From: Escherichia coli O157 typing phage 8
Direction: 5' to 3' (one strand)
Length of the DNA stretch: 64,000 nt
Sequence record: KP869106
Positions 15,211 through 27,855 of the stretch are shown here, piece after piece. The notes below the pieces were generated by a model. The model was given only the letters and a program-made list of their open reading frames with translations, was not told the DNA's origin and made no database searches. The translations under genes were made by a program, and so were the position numbers. Position 1 is the first letter of the stretch. Each line of letters opens with the position of its first letter.

Positions 15211-15481
15211 AGAAAAGTGGGAGATTTTACCATTAGTCAGTGAAGGAGGTAATGGTTGTGAAATGTACATGATACGTGGTCATGTTCCAGAGCCAATTGC
15301 ACTTGAGATGGTAAACAACTTTACAGATGGTTCTTACAAAGACTTAGGCGAACCAACTGTCAAGCAACAATGGGTTAAACCTGTACCAGACAGCACAGGT
15401 AACTGTAGTGTACTTTATCACGTTGTAGACCCTGCAAAATGCAAATCTGCAATGGCAGTAACAAACGTAACTTTTGATTGA
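15203..15481 (+). CDS. hypothetical protein
   Basis: ORF. Confidence 0.4.
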   Translation: MTKEKWEILPLVSEGGNGCEMYMIRGHVPEPIALEMVNNFTDGSYKDLGEPTVKQQWVKPVPDSTGNCSVLYHVVDPAKCKSAMAVTNVTFD

Positions 15482-16374
15482 GAGAGAAAACTATGAAAAC
15501 ATCTATCCGTGTTACAGTTCATTCACCAACTAAAGGGACTCATGAAGAAGAGTTTAACATCGTCCAATTCCCTTCTGGTGAGATTGGTGGACACTTTTCG
15601 CCAGAGTTTGTTGATTTTACTGCTTATGCAGCATCATCCATCAACAATGTGATTATGATTGTAAAAGGTTATGACAAGGACACATTGTTTGCTGTGGCAC
15701 TTGCTAAAGAAGCAATTGATGATTTAATTCCTCATGATTATGCTTTAAAGACTGTCATCTTTTACTACTTACCAAATGCACGATATGACCGTCACATGTT
15801 TAAAGGTGACGCAGCAGCTTTAAAGGTTTTTGCTAAACAGATTAATGCAATGGGATTTGGCGCAGTCTGTGCAGTTGACCCTCACAGCTATGTACCAGAT
15901 AACCTGTTTAACTGCTTCCAGAGTATTCCTCAAAAGGAGATTGCAGTCCACTATGCAAATGACCCACTGGTTGATTACTTAGTAGCCCCAGATGCAGGTG
16001 CTGCTAAGAAGGTTGCAGAGACCGCTAAAGAGGTGGATAAACCATATATCACAATGTCTAAGGTGCGTAACCTTAAGACTGGTGAAATTACTGGTATGCG
16101 AATCCTTGATGATGTTGATTTGACAGATAAAACCGTCATGATTCTGGATGATATCTGTGATGGTGGTCGAACCTTCATAGAAGCAGCTAAGCATCTCCGT
16201 GAAGCAGGTGCAAAACGTGTGGAACTCTATGTAACACATGGTATCTTCTCTAAAGATGTTGAAAACCTTCTTGACAATGGTATTGACCATATCTACACTA
16301 CAAACTCTTTAGGGGAAGCTAAAGACCGTGGCTTAACACATTATGGTCAAGTTACTGTAGCAAACCTTGATTGA
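15478..16374 (+). CDS. ribose-phosphate pyrophosphokinase (PRPP synthetase)-like; candidate ADPR-PP synthetase (Adps) of NARP1
   Basis: Type I phosphoribosyltransferase motif VMILDDICDGGRTF; immediately upstream of NAMPT-like gene. Confidence 0.7.
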   Translation: MREKTMKTSIRVTVHSPTKGTHEEEFNIVQFPSGEIGGHFSPEFVDFTAYAASSINNVIMIVKGYDKDTLFAVALAKEAIDDLIPHDYALKTVIFYYLPNARYDRHMFKGDAAALKVFAKQINAMGFGAVCAVDPHSYVPDNLFNCFQSIPQKEIAVHYANDPLVDYLVAPDAGAAKKVAETAKEVDKPYITMSKVRNLKTGEITGMRILDDVDLTDKTVMILDDICDGGRTFIEAAKHLREAGAKRVELYVTHGIFSKDVENLLDNGIDHIYTTNSLGEAKDRGLTHYGQVTVANLD

Positions 16375-16383
16375 AACTTTATA

Positions 16384-16405
16384 GGGGCTTAAAAGCCCCA
16401 TTTTG
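16384..16405 (+). terminator. putative terminator / attenuator
   Basis: GGGGCTT-AAA-AGCCCC hairpin followed by ATTTT. Confidence 0.4.
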
Positions 16406-16419
16406 AGAGAGATTAAAAG

Positions 16420-18201
16420 ATGACTAAATCACTTTATGCAGTACCAGCAGGTTTAAATGCAGATGCTTACAAATCTGGTCATGTTTACCAGTATCCTAGT
16501 GCAACAGAATACTTGATGTTCAACCTGACACCACGTAGTGATAAATGGTTTAACAGCCCTTTAGCAATTGACGGTGTAGTGGCTTTTGGTATTCAACGTT
16601 TTGTTAAAGATTACTTGATAGACCACTGGAACGCCACTTTCTTTGAACGTGATAAAAAAGAAGCCATTGATGAAATCTTAGAAGTCATGAATGGTGTTCT
16701 GGGTAAAGATGCTATCGGTCGAGAGCATTGGGAAGCACTTCACGACTTAGGTTATCTACCAGTTGAAGTATACGCTGTAGAAGAAGGTACAGTTGTCCCT
16801 ATGCGTGTCCCAATGATTGTCTTCCAGAACACTGTTTCAGGTTTCCATTGGGTAGCGGGATATCTGGAAGATGCTTTCTCTGCTGAGATTTGGAAGGCTT
16901 GTACCATTGCAACTATTGCATTGCATTATAAACGCATCTGTAAGAAGTGGGCTGACCTTACTTGCGACAATGACTTACATTTACCTTATCAGTGCCATGA
17001 CTTTGCTATGCGTGGTATGTCCGGCTTTACTGATGACGCATTTAACGCTGTAGGCCACTTAACCAGCTTTAAAGGGACTGATAGCTTCCCTGCTGTATAT
17101 ACAGCTAAACGCATCTACGGACAGTCTTACCCAGTCTCTGATATTGGTGGTTCTGTACCAGCCACTGAACACTCTGTAATGTGTGCAAACATTGCTTGGG
17201 AAGGTGGTAATGAGTTGGTTGAAGAAGAAAGACGCTTTAAAGGTGAGTTGCAAACCTTCCGTCGCTTCTTAACAGAAACTTATCCAACTGGTATTGCAAG
17301 TATTGTTTCAGATACTTATAACTTCTGGAGAACTGTGTCAGAAATCTTACCAGCACTCCGTAAAGAAATTATGGAACGTGACGGTAAACTGGTGATTCGT
17401 CCTGATTCTGGAGACCCTGTACATATTGTCACAGGTTATAAAGCAATCCACTTAGAATGTGCTAAGAAGGCTTATTACGAGCACCTAAGCAAGCTGGAAG
17501 CCAGTGACACAATGCTGAATGCTGTTCTGAACATGAAGCTTGAAAATATCAGCTATGGTATTGCTGGATGGCTACTGTCAGAAGGCTACGAAATGGTTGT
17601 TGACAGAGAAGACTTTGAAGTTGCTGACACAGTGATGTTGAAAAATGCTTATATGGTTGGTTCTGCAAACGTTGTAACACGTCCTGTAGCTGAGATTGAT
17701 GGAGCTATTAAGACTCTGTATAACATCTTTGGAGGAACTATTAACTCTAAAGGTTTTAAGGTACTGGATGAGCACATTGGACTTATCTATGGCGACTCTA
17801 TCACGTTGGAACGTGCAAACGAAATCCTGAAGCGTCTGTATGAAATGGGGTTTGCAAGCTCTAACGTGGTGTTTGGTGTAGGCTCTTACACTTACCAGTA
17901 CATGACTCGTGACACCTTTGCATTTGCTGTCAAAGCAACTCTTGCAAGCATTGGTGGCAAAGAGATTATGCTTGCAAAAGACCCTAAAACAGATAGTGGT
18001 GTTAAGAAATCTGCCTTTGGTGGTGTAGCACCTATGTGGGATGGTGAGAATTTGAAAGCTGTAGATGGCTATGGATTCCAGAGCTTTGCAGATGCACTTG
18101 AACATCCAGCTTGTGCTTTACGTTTAGTCTTTAGCGACTCTGAGCAGTACGGTTACACAACTCTTGGTGATATTCGAAATAATATTGACAAGCAGCTTTA
18201 A
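16420..18201 (+). CDS. nicotinamide phosphoribosyltransferase (NAMPT)-family protein; candidate Namat of NARP1
   Basis: 593 aa; N-terminal YKSGHVYQYP resembles the NAMPT N-terminus; adjacent to Prs-like gene. Confidence 0.75.
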   Translation: MTKSLYAVPAGLNADAYKSGHVYQYPSATEYLMFNLTPRSDKWFNSPLAIDGVVAFGIQRFVKDYLIDHWNATFFERDKKEAIDEILEVMNGVLGKDAIGREHWEALHDLGYLPVEVYAVEEGTVVPMRVPMIVFQNTVSGFHWVAGYLEDAFSAEIWKACTIATIALHYKRICKKWADLTCDNDLHLPYQCHDFAMRGMSGFTDDAFNAVGHLTSFKGTDSFPAVYTAKRIYGQSYPVSDIGGSVPATEHSVMCANIAWEGGNELVEEERRFKGELQTFRRFLTETYPTGIASIVSDTYNFWRTVSEILPALRKEIMERDGKLVIRPDSGDPVHIVTGYKAIHLECAKKAYYEHLSKLEASDTMLNAVLNMKLENISYGIAGWLLSEGYEMVVDREDFEVADTVMLKNAYMVGSANVVTRPVAEIDGAIKTLYNIFGGTINSKGFKVLDEHIGLIYGDSITLERANEILKRLYEMGFASSNVVFGVGSYTYQYMTRDTFAFAVKATLASIGGKEIMLAKDPKTDSGVKKSAFGGVAPMWDGENLKAVDGYGFQSFADALEHPACALRLVFSDSEQYGYTTLGDIRNNIDKQL

Positions 18202-23654: not shown

Positions 23655-24130
23655 GAGAAGAACTTATGAACAATATCATTACGGTAGCACTGGACGATAC
23701 GGCAAACAAATCTGAAGTAGTTCGTAAAATGATTCAAGGTAACTTTGAAGGTAAAATTTTCCGTGCTGTTAATGTAAAAGCTGATGGTAGCATTCGCGAA
23801 TATCGTGCATTGTTGAACGTTAAGAAGCACGTAAAAGGTGTTGGTTCAACGACTGCACACAAAGAAAACCTGATGACTATCTATGATATGGGTAAGGCTT
23901 CAGAGTTAGGTGCTGAGGGTATCGTTAAAGAAGGTGCTCCGTATCGCTCTTTCAATCTGGAAACTACTCTTATGCTTTCCTTTACAAGTGGTTCCAAAAC
24001 AATCACTTATCTCTTTACTGATGCTGCAACGGTATCTGCTATTAAGGATAGCACTGTCAAAGCTGGCGTAGTTGCTGCTGCAAAAGCTTCTTCGATGGCT
24101 GCGAATATCCTTGCTAAAGTCCTCGGTTAA
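23651..24130 (+). CDS. hypothetical protein
   Basis: ORF. Confidence 0.45.
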   Translation: MREELMNNIITVALDDTANKSEVVRKMIQGNFEGKIFRAVNVKADGSIREYRALLNVKKHVKGVGSTTAHKENLMTIYDMGKASELGAEGIVKEGAPYRSFNLETTLMLSFTSGSKTITYLFTDAATVSAIKDSTVKAGVVAAAKASSMAANILAKVLG

Positions 24131-24142
24131 GGTTAAGATACA

Positions 24143-24163
24143 GGCTCCTTCGGGAGCCTTTTT
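24143..24163 (+). terminator. intrinsic terminator with TTCG tetraloop
   Basis: GGCTCC-TTCG-GGAGCC followed by TTTTT. Confidence 0.6.
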
Positions 24164-24182
24164 CATTTCAGGAGATTGTTAA

Positions 24183-24530
24183 ATGACATTTAAAGAGTTC
24201 TGTCAAGCTACTTTCATAGTTGTTTTCTTAGTTGGGGCAGGTGTCTGGGGAGGATACTCTTACAGAGACTACCAAGTTGCTGAAACTGAGCTAAACAATG
24301 AGAAGCTGATAAGTGTTGCTAAAGATGCTTATCAGGAAGGATTAGCTACACTGAGCACCAATTACAAAAATGATTTGAAAGATGTGCTTGCTAAGAATAA
24401 GCACACAAAAGAGGTACTAACGTATGAAAAAACTAAGCCAGAGTTTTATAATGTTTGTGTTACTGATAATTATGTCAGGGTGTTCAACGAACAAAGTGAA
24501 CAGTACATTCAAAAACTCCCAAGTAAGTGA
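24183..24530 (+). CDS. i-spanin-like protein (Rz-like)
   Basis: N-terminal TM helix then predicted coiled coil; overlapped by downstream lipoprotein ORF. Confidence 0.4.
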   Translation: MTFKEFCQATFIVVFLVGAGVWGGYSYRDYQVAETELNNEKLISVAKDAYQEGLATLSTNYKNDLKDVLAKNKHTKEVLTYEKTKPEFYNVCVTDNYVRVFNEQSEQYIQKLPSK

Positions 24531-24693
24531 GGGTGACAAGTACACTCAAGAAGAATCACGGTATATCATCAAAGGTAACACAGGCAGTGATGTAGCAGCA
24601 GCACTTGAGTTCTACCGTGACGGCTTTTACCAGTGTACAATTAAAGCTAATAACCTTATTGACATGATTTTATTAGGGAATAAGCAGCAATGA
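24424..24693 (+). CDS. o-spanin-like lipoprotein (Rz1-like)
   Basis: Signal peptide with lipobox IIMSGC; starts inside 3' end of preceding ORF in another frame. Confidence 0.4.
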   Translation: MKKLSQSFIMFVLLIIMSGCSTNKVNSTFKNSQVSEGDKYTQEESRYIIKGNTGSDVAAALEFYRDGFYQCTIKANNLIDMILLGNKQQ

Positions 24694-24959
24694 CAGAGAA
24701 TCAAGACACTTTCTATGTAGAAGGTTACTTACTGTTGCCACGACCAAAAGAAACTTATATGCGAATTGATTTCTTACCAACCATTATGGATAATGTGATG
24801 TGTCATATCTTTATGCAAGGTGTCACAGCACAGCTTAAGCATGTTGGTAAAGATTGCAAAATAAAGGTTGACACTCATCCAGAAATCAAAGAGAATCACT
24901 ACACATGGTTCTTACCAGATTCTAAAGAAATCTTAGCAGTTCTTAAAACGAGGAAGTAA
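24690..24959 (+). CDS. hypothetical protein
   Basis: ORF. Confidence 0.45.
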   Translation: MTENQDTFYVEGYLLLPRPKETYMRIDFLPTIMDNVMCHIFMQGVTAQLKHVGKDCKIKVDTHPEIKENHYTWFLPDSKEILAVLKTRK

Positions 24960-24961
24960 CT

Positions 24962-25285
24962 ATGCAGATTAATGGAAGAGACTTTGTAGCCGTTTACTAC
25001 GAGAAAGATAAAGAAGTTGGCGTAGCGCAAGTATCTTATGGCAATGGTGGGTGGCTATATGGAACAATCGCAGTAGTTGGAACGAGAAGTGATACAAAAA
25101 CTTTTAAAGATTGTGTTGACCTTCTTGAAGAATCCATTCAGAATCATTGGTGTCTGATATGGATGACTGACAACGAAGTGATAGAACGCTTCAAAAAGGT
25201 TGATATCAACATTGATAGTATTGAGCATGTTGATTTATATGAGCTAACTGAGAAGGTAAATTATGAAAGCTCTAGAGGTAATTGA
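24962..25285 (+). CDS. hypothetical protein
   Basis: ORF. Confidence 0.45.
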   Translation: MQINGRDFVAVYYEKDKEVGVAQVSYGNGGWLYGTIAVVGTRSDTKTFKDCVDLLEESIQNHWCLIWMTDNEVIERFKKVDINIDSIEHVDLYELTEKVNYESSRGN

Positions 25286-25490
25286 TAAAGATACTGGAGA
25301 AGTCGTATCTGCATGTGTTTTCATGAGCGATGACACAGTAATACCGTTTTACAATCTTGATGGTTTTAGTTTTACAGGGATAACTCCAGAAGAATACTTT
25401 GAAGACCTTACCTTTGCCAGAATTTCTATAGATACATTCTATAAATGCTTCTATGATGAAGGTAAAGAATTACGAGAAACTGAACTATAA
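25263..25490 (+). CDS. hypothetical protein
   Basis: ORF. Confidence 0.4.
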   Translation: MKALEVIDKDTGEVVSACVFMSDDTVIPFYNLDGFSFTGITPEEYFEDLTFARISIDTFYKCFYDEGKELRETEL

Positions 25491-25502
25491 GGTGTATGTT
25501 AT

Positions 25503-25703
25503 ATGGCTGACTTCTGCAAAGACTGTTCTATAGAAATGTTTGGACGTGATACAGGTGACTTAAAAGGTCTTATCACTGAAGATGACTTTAAAGCTGGCTA
25601 TGCAATGCCAGTAATCTGTGAAGGTTGTGGATGTATCTGGGTAGACCATGAGGGGCAACGTGTAAAACCTTCAGAAGATAAAGAATCTTGGGAGAGATGT
25701 TAA
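25503..25703 (+). CDS. small Cys-rich hypothetical protein
   Basis: 66 aa with CxxC...CEGCGC. Confidence 0.4.
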   Translation: MADFCKDCSIEMFGRDTGDLKGLITEDDFKAGYAMPVICEGCGCIWVDHEGQRVKPSEDKESWERC

Positions 25704-26489
25704 ATGGGTATTGTAAAAATAATCAATGGTGATATCTTTGCCGCATTTGATAAAGGTAAGTTTGACATCATCGGTCACGGTTGCAACTGTATGAATTTAA
25801 TGGGTGCAGGTATCGCTGACAAGATTTCTAAACTTTACCCAAAAGCATATGAGACCGATACAGAAGTTTATCTATATGCAGGTGGTATAGGACACAAACC
25901 CTGTGAAAATTTACTGGGTAATTTCTCTGTAGCACGTTTAAAACAAGGTCGTATAGCTAACCTTTACACTCAGCTTAAGACTGGTAAAGATGCCCGATAC
26001 AGTGCTTTAGAGTCATCTTTGAAACAGCTTAACAGATACTGTGAAGTTAATCAGTTGAGGAAAGTTGGTTTACCTATGATTGGTGCAGGTATCGGTGGGT
26101 TGGACCCTCAAGCCGTCACAGTTATCATCAATCAGGTGATGAAGAGTGTAGATGTTTATCTATATGTCTATGAAGGAGAGATGTACCACAAGTTACGCTC
26201 AGGTTGGAATAACTACTGTGAACCAGAATACTTTGCAGGTGTAGTAACGTTCAAAGATGATACAGTTACCCTCTTCAGACGAAGAAAAGGTAAGATACAT
26301 CAAAGTAACCCTCCGGTTGAGAAGATGTCTCTAAGTAACGCTCTAGTTACCCACCTGTCGAAGAGCAATCACAGGATAGCCGTAACATTTGGCAGTGATG
26401 CAGATACATATATTTATGCAAGAACTGATGAGGATATCGAGACGGTCTTCTCTTCACCGGAAGTTACCTTCTTAGACGCAAAGAACTAA
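25704..26489 (+). CDS. macro-domain protein (ADP-ribose binding / ADP-ribosyl hydrolase-like)
   Basis: GDIF...DIIGHGCNCMNLMGAGIA and GLPMIGAGIGGL match macro-domain glycine-rich ADPR-binding loops; extra ~90 aa C-terminal extension. Confidence 0.6.
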   Translation: MGIVKIINGDIFAAFDKGKFDIIGHGCNCMNLMGAGIADKISKLYPKAYETDTEVYLYAGGIGHKPCENLLGNFSVARLKQGRIANLYTQLKTGKDARYSALESSLKQLNRYCEVNQLRKVGLPMIGAGIGGLDPQAVTVIINQVMKSVDVYLYVYEGEMYHKLRSGWNNYCEPEYFAGVVTFKDDTVTLFRRRKGKIHQSNPPVEKMSLSNALVTHLSKSNHRIAVTFGSDADTYIYARTDEDIETVFSSPEVTFLDAKN

Positions 26490-26559
26490 GAAACTCTGTA
26501 TAATATTCACAATAGACTAAGCCTTCCTTATCTGGTAAATTTTTCAGGTAAGGAGGGCT

Positions 26560-26760
26560 TTTTCATTTCAGGATTGTGCAGGTAGAGTTCTGTAGAGAAA
26601 TCTGTAGAGAGAATTTTGAACTCCAAAGAGAAAATTCATTTTCAAACTGTGCAGGTAATCTCCAAAGAGCTTTTTCATTTTCAAAAAGTGCACCCCGCTC
26701 AGGTCGGGCAAGAAAAATCATTTTAGAATTGTGCAGGTAGGTTTTTATGGAGAGCCATAC
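26560..26760. repeat. four spaced copies of a CATTTTCA...TGTGCAGGTA motif, followed by a polypyrimidine C-rich tract
   Basis: Direct repeats near 26574, 26650, 26690, 26732; CCCCTCTCCCCCTATTACCCCCTCTCTCCCC at about 26762-26792; gene-free. Confidence 0.45.
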
Positions 26761-26915
26761 CAACCCCTCTCCCCCTATTACCCCCTCTCTCCCCAAAAGT
26801 CAAGAGAAAAATTTGTAGCGGATTGAAAAATAATTCTTGATTTGTGTTCTGTTTTGTGGTAGTCGTGTGCGCACGTTTCATTACAGTTTTTCCAAAAATA
26901 TTTTTAAAATTTTTC

Positions 26916-26944
26916 TTGACTCTTTGAACGGGGTTATCTAGTAT
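26916..26944 (+). promoter_or_regulatory. sigma70-like promoter TTGACT-17-TAGTAT heading the early-gene array
   Basis: Consensus-like hexamers with 17 bp spacer upstream of type-A leader. Confidence 0.45.
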
Positions 26945-26950
26945 TTGCAT

Positions 26951-27007
26951 CAACGGGGAGGGAATGACCTTCCCCACTAAATAAAGTCCTAAACTGGAGA
27001 TTCAAAA
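26951..27007 (+). promoter_or_regulatory. type-A conserved leader: hairpin GGGGAGGG-AATGA-CCTTCCCC, then RBS GGAG
   Basis: Near-identical 55-60 nt cassette repeated 7 times before small ORFs. Confidence 0.5.
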
Positions 27008-27388
27008 ATGGCATACCGTGCACCTAAATTCATCAACAAAGACAACTTTCGCAACGCACTGGAGAAGTCACTTGATGAGAATTTTAAAGGTAACGTTATT
27101 GTTGTTCACTCGTTCAATTTCAAGTATGATATTAACGGGAATAAAATCAACCATTACACGGCGACAATGCTAGATGGTACTCTTTCAAGTGAAAAAGCCA
27201 TTTTACATGCACTTGCTGGACGTGGTAAAAACCTGATAAGATGCGATAAGAGACGTTATCAGGGTGGCGCATATGGTTACGATGATGCTGTTTATCATCT
27301 TGAAAATATGGGCTATCAAGTAGAAAAAGCTGGAGTGTCTCAAATAATCGGTAGTGATGGTTATGTAACAATCTTCAAAATTAACTGA
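27008..27388 (+). CDS. early-array small protein (unknown function)
   Basis: ORF directly behind type-A cassette. Confidence 0.5.
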   Translation: MAYRAPKFINKDNFRNALEKSLDENFKGNVIVVHSFNFKYDINGNKINHYTATMLDGTLSSEKAILHALAGRGKNLIRCDKRRYQGGAYGYDDAVYHLENMGYQVEKAGVSQIIGSDGYVTIFKIN

Positions 27389-27406
27389 TAAAGTACTTTA
27401 CAAGGG

Positions 27407-27476
27407 GCTTATAGTTCGATAAAGTAAGCCCCAGATAAAGAGCTTTACCACTAAATCCTAAATTGGAGATTCAAAA
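27407..27476 (+). promoter_or_regulatory. type-B cassette: TTTACA, palindrome GGGGCTTA-N13-TAAGCCCC with -10-like hexamer inside, then RBS
   Basis: Cassette repeated 5 times (27407, 27776, 28846, 29642, 30913). Confidence 0.45.
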
Positions 27477-27767
27477 ATGGCTACTATCAAAAACGTTGTA
27501 ATTCCTGTAAAAACTCGTGATGACGCTCGCATCATGGCGAAAAAGTTAGGCGGGAAAGTGGTTGACAACGGAAAACAATCTGCTGTAAGATGGGGTGTGA
27601 AGGCTGATAAACAGTTGAAGTTAAAAAATTCACCAATAAATCTTTTTACATGTGTAAACACTATCGGAAAGACAAATGTATACACGAAAAAGGCATATAT
27701 TAGACGCGTAGCCTTAACATCTCCAATTCGTACAATGAGAGGTTATGCAAAGCTGAAAATTAGCTGA
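27477..27767 (+). CDS. early-array small protein (unknown function)
   Basis: ORF behind type-B cassette. Confidence 0.5.
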   Translation: MATIKNVVIPVKTRDDARIMAKKLGGKVVDNGKQSAVRWGVKADKQLKLKNSPINLFTCVNTIGKTNVYTKKAYIRRVALTSPIRTMRGYAKLKIS

Positions 27768-27775
27768 TAAAGTAC

Positions 27776-27855
27776 TTTACAAGGGGCTTAAAAGTTGGTA
27801 TCTTAAGCCCCAGATAAAGAGCTTTACCACTCAATCCTAAACTGGAGATTCAAAA
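27776..27855 (+). promoter_or_regulatory. type-B cassette
   Basis: TTTACA + GGGGCTTA...TAAGCCCC palindrome + conserved RBS region. Confidence 0.45.

Follow-up and report, generated by a model that had tools for sequence, protein, structure and literature searches.

The 64,000-nucleotide stretch of Escherichia coli O157 typing phage 8 DNA analyzed here (record KP869106; hereafter the window) encodes a macro-domain protein, gp12, which sequence comparison places with Tk.4 (AdfM) in a clade of phage macrodomain hydrolases of the glutamine type. The open reading frame (ORF; 25704..26489, + strand) starts with ATG, ends with TAA, and specifies 261 amino acids plus the stop. It corresponds to gp12 of Escherichia phage wV8 (YP_002922793.1), and the 4.5 kb of the window tested in this region (24000–28500) are 100% identical to the wV8 genome (EU877232/NC_012749). 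wV8 is a Felix O1-like myovirus of the genus Felixounavirus, subfamily Ounavirinae, and at least 242 Ounavirinae records of the phage collection contain the gene. The product is already annotated as a macro-domain protein. Its existing GenBank and RefSeq names are "hypothetical protein," "macro domain protein," "phosphatase," and, once, "O-acetyl-ADP-ribose deacetylase," and it matches PHROG 335 ("phosphatase") with E = 8e-113. The part not described in the literature searched is a C-terminal domain (CTD) with an unmatched fold. As for function, the comparison with characterized relatives gives about an even chance that gp12 is an orphan, antitoxin-like macrodomain ADP-ribosyl hydrolase that acts in counter-defence against DarTG2.

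Macro domain and active site

The macro domain covers residues 1–170 (25704..26213, + strand), including a terminal helix at residues 158–167, with boundaries drawn from Pfam, AlphaFold2 secondary structure, and Foldseek. The Pfam Macro model (PF01661) matches residues 25–141 with 31.6 bits against a gathering score of 22 (E = 1.7e-7). When a profile of 25 gp12-family homologues was compared with the PDB, the matches included TARG1 (E = 3.5e-17), the macro domain of Mycobacterium tuberculosis DarG (1.7e-16), SCO6735 (5E3B; 6e-15), yeast Poa1p (7.5e-14), and Thermus aquaticus DarG (1.9e-13). An AlphaFold2 model built on the homologue alignment has a mean predicted local distance difference test score (pLDDT) of 90 and a predicted template modeling score (pTM) of 0.88. 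In the Foldseek comparison of this model with the PDB, TARG1 is the top match (E = 4e-10, probability 1.00, target-normalized template modeling (TM) score 0.81–0.86), followed by Poa1p, DarG, and viral macro domains. Target-normalized TM scores across the matches range from 0.72 to 0.86, and all matches are confined to the first ~155–180 alignment columns of gp12. AlphaFold2 and Foldseek agree on the three-layer alpha/beta/alpha fold that is typical of macro domains. Furthermore, the ratio of nonsynonymous to synonymous substitution rates (dN/dS; Nei-Gojobori method) within Felixounavirus is 0.02–0.12 for this domain, indicating strong purifying selection.

These results bear out most of an earlier account that was made from the DNA sequence alone (hereafter the sequence-only reading), which had described a macro-domain protein with a C-terminal extension at 25704–26489. 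The exact ORF, Pfam, AlphaFold2, and Foldseek all agree with this description. The three motifs that it named were located at residues 9–12 (GDIF), 21–38 (DIIGHGCNCMNLMGAGIA), and 122–133 (GLPMIGAGIGGL). That account would have been given up if the fold were not that of a macro domain or if the residues for binding ADP-ribose (ADPR) were absent. Structure prediction returned a macro domain, and the ADPR-binding loops 1 and 2 are present and conserved in the 25 homologues. In addition, the solved structures nearest to gp12, namely TARG1, DarG, and Poa1p, are those it had proposed for comparison or their close kin.

Among the 25 aligned homologues, 16 residues are invariant (H25, G26, N28, C29, M33, G36, A38, P46, G72, N86, L87, T89, Q90, P124, G127, and G129). 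The motif HGCNCMNLMGAGIA (residues 25–38; 25776..25817, + strand), recognized by conservation and by alignments with DarG and Poa1p, includes the phosphate-binding loop 1. In these alignments, H25 shares a column with H23 of Poa1p and with H24 of Adpp, a macro protein of Vibrio phage Gary that is discussed below, and N28 shares a column with N22 of the T. aquaticus DarG (TaqDarG). The motif NLYTQ (residues 86–90; 25959..25973, + strand) has four invariant positions (N86, L87, T89, and Q90). Loop 2, PMIGAGIGG (residues 124–132; 26073..26099, + strand), with P124, G127, and G129 invariant, is predicted from the TARG1 alignment to bind the diphosphate and the distal ribose. The glycine-rich segments of the two loops, MGAGIA (residues 33–38) and IGAGIGG (residues 126–132), are conserved or invariant among the homologues.

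The catalytic lysine and the Asp125 of the lysine-type TARG1/DarG hydrolases are absent from gp12 in the alignments to PDB sequences. Q90 occupies the column of the lysine (DarG K80 and TARG1 K84), and G131 occupies the column of TARG1 D125, the partner in the catalytic pair. Because the invariant Gln90 replaces the catalytic lysine, gp12 is not a lysine-type TARG1/DarG enzyme. A glutamine at the catalytic-lysine position is found in SCO6735 of Streptomyces coelicolor (Gln85), which cleaves thymidine-linked ADP-ribose on single-stranded DNA and protects against DarT (PMC9411070). Its Q85A variant is inactive, and a water-activation mechanism has been proposed (PMC9411070). The residues expected of this glutamine-type, ALC1-like group are all invariant in the gp12 family: H25, N28, and Q90, with H24, N27, and Q85 as the SCO6735 equivalents. 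The glutamine active site of gp12 is a natural test of the mechanism proposed for SCO6735.

Each of the solved relatives departs from gp12 in some respect. SCO6735 (5E3B) has the glutamine in place of the catalytic lysine and conserves the histidine and the asparagine of the first motif, but it is a distant bacterial enzyme, DNA-damage-induced and of a housekeeping or defence nature, without an equivalent of the CTD. Human TARG1/OARD1 (4J5Q-S) and yeast Poa1p (6LFQ), which match best in the structure and profile comparisons, are both eukaryotic and single-domain; TARG1 has K84/D125 where gp12 has Q90/G131, and Poa1p has a serine at the Q90 position. DarG (TaqDarG, 5M31/5M3E; the M. tuberculosis protein MtbDarG, 5M3I) shares the macro fold, the N22 equivalent of Asn28, and the ADPR-binding loops. 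However, it has K80 at the position of Q90, its CTD is dissimilar, and gp12 has no adjacent darT gene. DarG models are the sole matches of gp12 in the PADLOC and NCBIfam libraries, but gp12 falls below the DarG equivalog cut-off. The NCBIfam model antitoxin_DarG (NF048014) scores 47.3 bits against a cut-off of 250 and is matched only at positions 4–152 of 338, and the PADLOC DarG model is matched only at positions 18–145 of 329.

With T4 Tk.4, BLASTP gave an alignment over residues 3–157 of gp12, the whole macro domain, with 35% identity (E = 3e-24). The two proteins share the motifs HGCNC, NLYTQ, and IGAGIG, and both are phage-encoded orphans without a toxin partner; Tk.4 has 155 amino acids and only the macro domain, whereas gp12 adds the 87-residue CTD. 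In a neighbor-joining tree of MAFFT-aligned macro domains (100 bootstraps), the two-domain proteins including gp12 form a clade with 98% support. A larger clade with 100% support unites it with single-domain metagenomic relatives and the Tk.4 group and leaves out all seven sampled macro proteins that are associated with NARP1, the phage pathway for NAD+ synthesis to which Adpp belongs. The glutamine at the DarG-lysine position is common to gp12, Tk.4, and Gary Adpp. The sequence motifs of the Tk.4/gp12 clade are HGCNC, NLYTQ, and IGAGIGG, in contrast to HQ[AC]NC and N[LV]YGQY in most of the NARP1-linked proteins. Because the tree, the motifs, and the gene context agree, gp12 is best placed in the AdfM (Tk.4) clade and not among the Adpp proteins. 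The relationship between gp12 and T4 has long been known, and the sole recent addition is the function of Tk.4. A 2003 record of Felix O1 already likens ORF29 (L011:1027–1812) to the T4 "hypothetical 17.5 kD protein in tk-vs intergenic region," which is Tk.4.

Three other macro homologues have notable surroundings or domain compositions. A single-domain protein on an 87-kb phage-like metagenomic contig (P0024; L008:5001–9820) is followed, 0.8 kb downstream, by two paired genes for an RVT_1 reverse transcriptase and an 875-amino-acid HATPase-like protein. Another single-domain homologue, on a 94-kb contig (P0025; L009:1186–5492), is immediately preceded by two ORFs, a large one and one that faintly matches rIIB, echoing the rIIA/rIIB placement in Ounavirinae. 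The third, a 339-amino-acid protein from a Logan contig (P0026), matches Pfam PF20274 besides Macro, and its C-terminal region of ~150 residues is unrelated to that of the wV8 protein.

Predicted function and competing explanations

The expectation that gp12 counters DarTG2 draws on two phage systems. In T4, tk.4 was the single gene depleted on DarTG2-expressing hosts in transposon sequencing, and a clean knockout sensitizes the phage; the gene was named adfM (bioRxiv 10.1101/2025.11.20.689424). In PhiKZ, the AdfM macrodomain protein gp104, which is of the lysine type unlike the glutamine-type gp12, was shown to clear DNA of DarT2 marks, both in vitro and in vivo (PMC13309987). Reversal of DarT-type DNA ADP-ribosylation was among the activities that the sequence-only reading had considered, and it gains support from Tk.4, a 35% identical protein that joins gp12 in a clade with 100% bootstrap support and is needed against DarTG2.

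In the proposed mechanism, loop 1 (residues 31–38) and loop 2 (residues 124–132) would hold ADP-ribose, while N28 and the invariant Q90 would bring the distal ribose and a water molecule into position. The bond to be hydrolyzed would be the C1''–N3(thymine) bond that host DarT2 makes on single-stranded phage DNA, and the products would be free ADP-ribose and DNA that can be replicated. The chemistry would be like that of the glutamine-type SCO6735 and not that of the lysine-type DarG and TARG1. A link to NAD+ supply may follow from the same reaction. NARP1 was discovered in Bas63 (JohannRWettstein), a Felixounavirus, and makes NAD+ from ADP-ribose and nicotinamide. As DarT2 spends NAD+ to produce ADP-ribosylated DNA and nicotinamide, the ADP-ribose freed by gp12 could be used by NARP1 for regenerating NAD+. 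Both this coupling and the substrate of gp12 are what we infer from the functions of Tk.4, SCO6735, Adpp, and NARP1 given in the literature.

If gp12 acts in this way, the known range of macrodomain anti-DarT factors (AdfM) would grow to include a phage group that is large and amenable to genetics. Typing, biocontrol, and therapy directed at Salmonella and E. coli O157 make wide use of Felix O1-like phages, and knowing which defences these phages neutralize helps in predicting host range.

The strongest competitor comes from Adpp of Vibrio phage Gary (KNV71_gp137; sequence from the supplementary table of bioRxiv 10.64898/2026.01.28.702374). This Poa1p-like macro protein is encoded in a NARP1 operon and dephosphorylates ADP-ribose-1''-phosphate (ADPR-1''P), the product of the aRES defence, such that NARP1 can rebuild NAD+; the H24A mutation inactivates Adpp, and NARP1 needs Adpp to overcome aRES (bioRxiv 10.64898/2026.01.28.702374). 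It is possible, if somewhat doubtful, that gp12 is an Adpp-type phosphatase working in trans with NARP1. In that case, the RES-domain defence aRES of the host would cut NAD+ into nicotinamide and ADPR-1''P, a form that is of no use to NARP1, and gp12 would convert this ADPR-1''P into ADPR for Adps and Namat, an activity that is compatible with a role against DarT2. gp12 and Gary Adpp are in the same Poa1p-like superfamily with 27% identity (52 bits, E = 3e-12), and the purified Gary enzyme turns ADPR-1P into ADPR. Both have the glutamine at the DarG-lysine position, the equivalent of the catalytic histidine of Adpp is kept as the invariant His25, and Gary, like wV8, has Adps and Namat. Moreover, wV8 encodes NARP1, aRES occurs in E. 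coli, PHROG 335 and a RefSeq entry carry the label "phosphatase," and Poa1p is among the best structural matches. However, gp12 groups with Tk.4 at 100% bootstrap support, apart from all the NARP1-associated macro proteins, and T4 carries an enzyme of the same clade. T4 is not known to carry NARP1. Gary Adpp itself is a single-domain protein of ~158 amino acids with HQCNC and NVYGQY in place of HGCNC and NLYTQ, and it lies inside the NARP1 operon. Adpp proteins are defined by a location within two genes of NARP1 (Adps/Namat), whereas gp12 starts 7.5 kb downstream of the NARP1 end, beyond rIIA, rIIB, and other genes, and belongs to a different unit that is delimited by terminators. The table of Adpp proteins contains no Escherichia or Salmonella phage (bioRxiv 10.64898/2026.01.28.702374). 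A dual role is plausible, given that both activities cleave at C1'' of the distal ribose and that the class is promiscuous.

Small molecules or other macromolecules may also be considered as targets. A survey of viral NAD+/ADP-ribose systems proposed soluble ADPR derivatives as the substrates of many phage macro domains (PMC9503650), and TARG1-class enzymes deacetylate O-acetyl-ADP-ribose, with PDB entries named "O-acetyl-ADP-ribose deacetylase 1." gp12 could by analogy silence signaling defences by destroying ADP-ribose-derived immune signals or small conjugates, such as the Thoeris 2'/3'-cyclic ADPR, His-ADPR, or O-acetyl-ADPR. We consider this very unlikely, because cleavage of cyclic ADPR is reported for no member of the clade, the characterized relatives act on thymidine-linked ADP-ribose in DNA or on ADPR-1''P, and the gp12 neighborhood contains no pointer to Thoeris. 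Reversal of protein or RNA ADP-ribosylation, introduced by host ADP-ribosyltransferase (ART) toxins (e.g., CmdT on mRNA) or by a phage-encoded ART that needs limits, is very unlikely as well. TARG1 and SCO6735 also hydrolyze Glu/Asp-linked protein ADP-ribose (PMC9411070), and TARG1 strips ADP-ribose from RNA and DNA phosphate ends. However, SCO6735 is inactive on RNA ADP-ribosylated at the 2'-OH; for 5'-phosphate-linked ADP-ribose, the results section of the same paper reports no activity, while its discussion describes the enzyme as active on RNA phosphate ends. The clade also has no known genetic link to CmdTAC.

Several points weigh against the assignment of gp12 to DarTG2 counter-defence. 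Macro domains are often promiscuous, and Gary Adpp, a proven ADPR-1''P phosphatase, belongs to the same superfamily; its identity to Tk.4 is 35% (77 bits). The tree is a simple distance tree of ~150 columns, in which the sequences around gp12 were picked by similarity to gp12. The equivalence of Q90 and SCO6735 Q85 comes from the statement in the SCO6735 paper combined with a transitive alignment through DarG and TARG1. The AdfM assignment in T4 comes from a preprint and has a genetic basis only. Finally, gp12 shares a transcription unit with spanin genes, and early expression is therefore not established.

The C-terminal domain

The CTD (residues 175–261; 26226..26486, + strand) is predicted by AlphaFold2 to consist of six beta strands and one helix. 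Its pLDDT is 86–94 within the full-length model and 82 when the domain is modeled alone, and the whole-protein pTM of 0.88 implies that the two domains are packed rigidly in the predicted structure. The sequence-only reading had stated that the last ~90 residues have no recognizable fold. This holds in so far as the CTD has no match in Pfam, NCBIfam, the PDB, or BFVD. The CTD is nevertheless not an unstructured tail, as AlphaFold2 predicts a compact and confident domain, and this domain is under selection. Within Felixounavirus, dN/dS is 0.16–0.40 for the CTD, compared with the much lower values of the macro domain given above. Domain-wide positive selection was considered and rejected, as the CTD values (0.16–0.60) are always below 1. 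Because dN/dS never exceeds 1, the CTD is a selected, functional part of the protein, with a constraint that is 4–7 times weaker than that of the macro domain. The difference is also visible at larger distances. Identity to the wV8 protein is 51% for the CTD vs. 81% for the macro domain in SUSP2-type proteins, and ~18% vs. 43% in a distant group.

The two-domain architecture is found in ~19 clusters of proteins with 246–264 amino acids and 33–95% identity. In the phage collection, the CTD occurs in at least 242 records, always fused to a macro domain, and nearly all of these are from Felixounavirus, Mooglevirus, and Suspvirus. The contigs examined have a uniform Ounavirinae-like synteny, in which rIIA and rIIB are followed, after further genes, by a PNK-like gene, a small ORF, and the macro gene. 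Homology connects the CTDs of the Felixounavirus-like proteins to those of a divergent metagenomic group (hhalign probability 96.8%, E = 2.5e-10, 86 columns), and both groups share the motif N-[YF]-x-x-P-x-x-F-[DA]-G and a late tyrosine.

Searches outside this family returned very little. A phmmer search of 1.84 billion representative sequences recovered the family itself, one fragment, and two short matches in proteins of ~1,070 amino acids that were taken as spurious. A CTD profile search of 5.8 billion proteins found one fragment only, a weak negative since full-length family members were apparently missed too. Hidden Markov model scans of the loci around single-domain homologues and T4 tk.4 detected no stand-alone CTD, and the completed scans of IMG/VR found nothing for the CTD elsewhere. 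The CTD alone matches nothing in the DarG models and is unrelated to the C-terminal domain of DarG.

Two candidate identities for the CTD were rejected. A relationship to aRad1, the inhibitor of aRES, is not supported, with an hhalign probability of 0.1% against aRad1a–g, and the window contains no aRad1-like ORF. Conserved charge, as may be expected for DNA binding or mimicry, gives no consistent signal, with the net charge ranging from −4 to +5 across homologues; this spread speaks against a surface conserved for either role.

We infer, with low confidence, that the CTD is a lineage-specific accessory that may serve as a putative partner- or substrate-recognition module. A more far-reaching and improbable idea takes up the two-domain logic of DarG, which combines a macro hydrolase with a DarT-binding C-terminal domain. 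The CTD could be a second anti-defence module with a new fold that blocks a host effector, likely DarT2 or an NAD+-cleaving enzyme. In that case, gp12 would have arrived by convergence, without homology, at the two-pronged design of DarG (an eraser plus a toxin inhibitor), and its macro domain would supply NARP1 with ADP-ribose derived from DNA repair or ADPR-1''P, closing an NAD+ recycling loop. As a conserved domain that is always fused to the enzyme, the CTD is a small and defined target for studying how such hydrolases reach their substrates or partners.

Transcription unit and NARP1 neighborhood

gp12 is the last gene of a unit on the + strand (24142–26560). The unit begins at a terminator-like hairpin (24142..24159, + strand), identified by hairpin search and in the wV8 annotation, and ends at an intrinsic-terminator-like hairpin with a 17-bp stem followed by a T run (26519..26560, + strand), which is annotated as a Rho-independent terminator in wV8. 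It contains overlapping i-spanin and o-spanin genes (24183–24693), four small ORFs, gp11, and gp12. This mixture of lysis genes and putative counter-defence genes is an odd combination. No toxin gene is adjacent to gp12 and no ORF of the unit is annotated as an ART, a darT partner having been sought here by annotation only and not by a search of the window for ART genes.

The preceding gene, gp11 (25503–25703, + strand), has a stop codon that abuts the gp12 start. It encodes a Cys-rich protein of 66 amino acids with a zinc-ribbon-like pattern (CxxC ... CxxCxC) and no Pfam match. A Shine-Dalgarno-like GGGAGAG lies 7 nt 5' of the gp12 ATG, within the 3' end of gp11. The wV8 notes tie gp11 and gp12 to one Felix O1 protein, and a fusion or readthrough product was considered. 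This possibility was rejected, as the two are separate ORFs in Felix O1, REP7, HY02, Mordin, and others. gp11 homologues also occur without a macro neighbor in T5-like and rV5-like phages, and the distant two-domain homologues have unrelated upstream genes. The gp11 homologues in the rV5-like and T5-like (Epseptimavirus) phages, which lack a nearby macro gene, have ~71% DNA identity.

The sequence-only reading had also placed an NAD+ gene pair ~7 kb from gp12 and taken it as a sign of a wider investment in ADP-ribose/NAD+ metabolism. The pair is real and consists of PRPS-like and Nampt-like ORFs 7.5 kb upstream. The Adps-like, PRPS-type ORF (15478–16374, + strand), identified by Pfam and annotated as Prs (ribose-phosphate pyrophosphokinase), has 38% identity to Gary Adps. 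The Namat-like, Nampt-type ORF (16420–18201, + strand), also identified by Pfam and annotated as NadV, has 43% identity to SPbetaL1 Namat, 40% to Gary Namat, and 26% to KVP40 Nampt. By homology, the pair (15478..18201) is the NARP1 operon (Adps + Namat), and the wider investment finds a concrete form in NARP1 as a consumer of ADP-ribose. The public product names of both genes are misleading because of this homology and of the definition of NARP1 in Bas63. With NARP1 and gp12 in one genome, these phages provide a system for asking if a single phage enzyme takes part in DNA de-ADP-ribosylation as well as in NAD+ reconstitution.

Downstream of gp12, the wV8 record lists families of 40–80-bp direct repeats (DR_1 to DR_9) that precede many small ORFs (~26950–32600, + strand) and have the look of promoter or regulatory cassettes.

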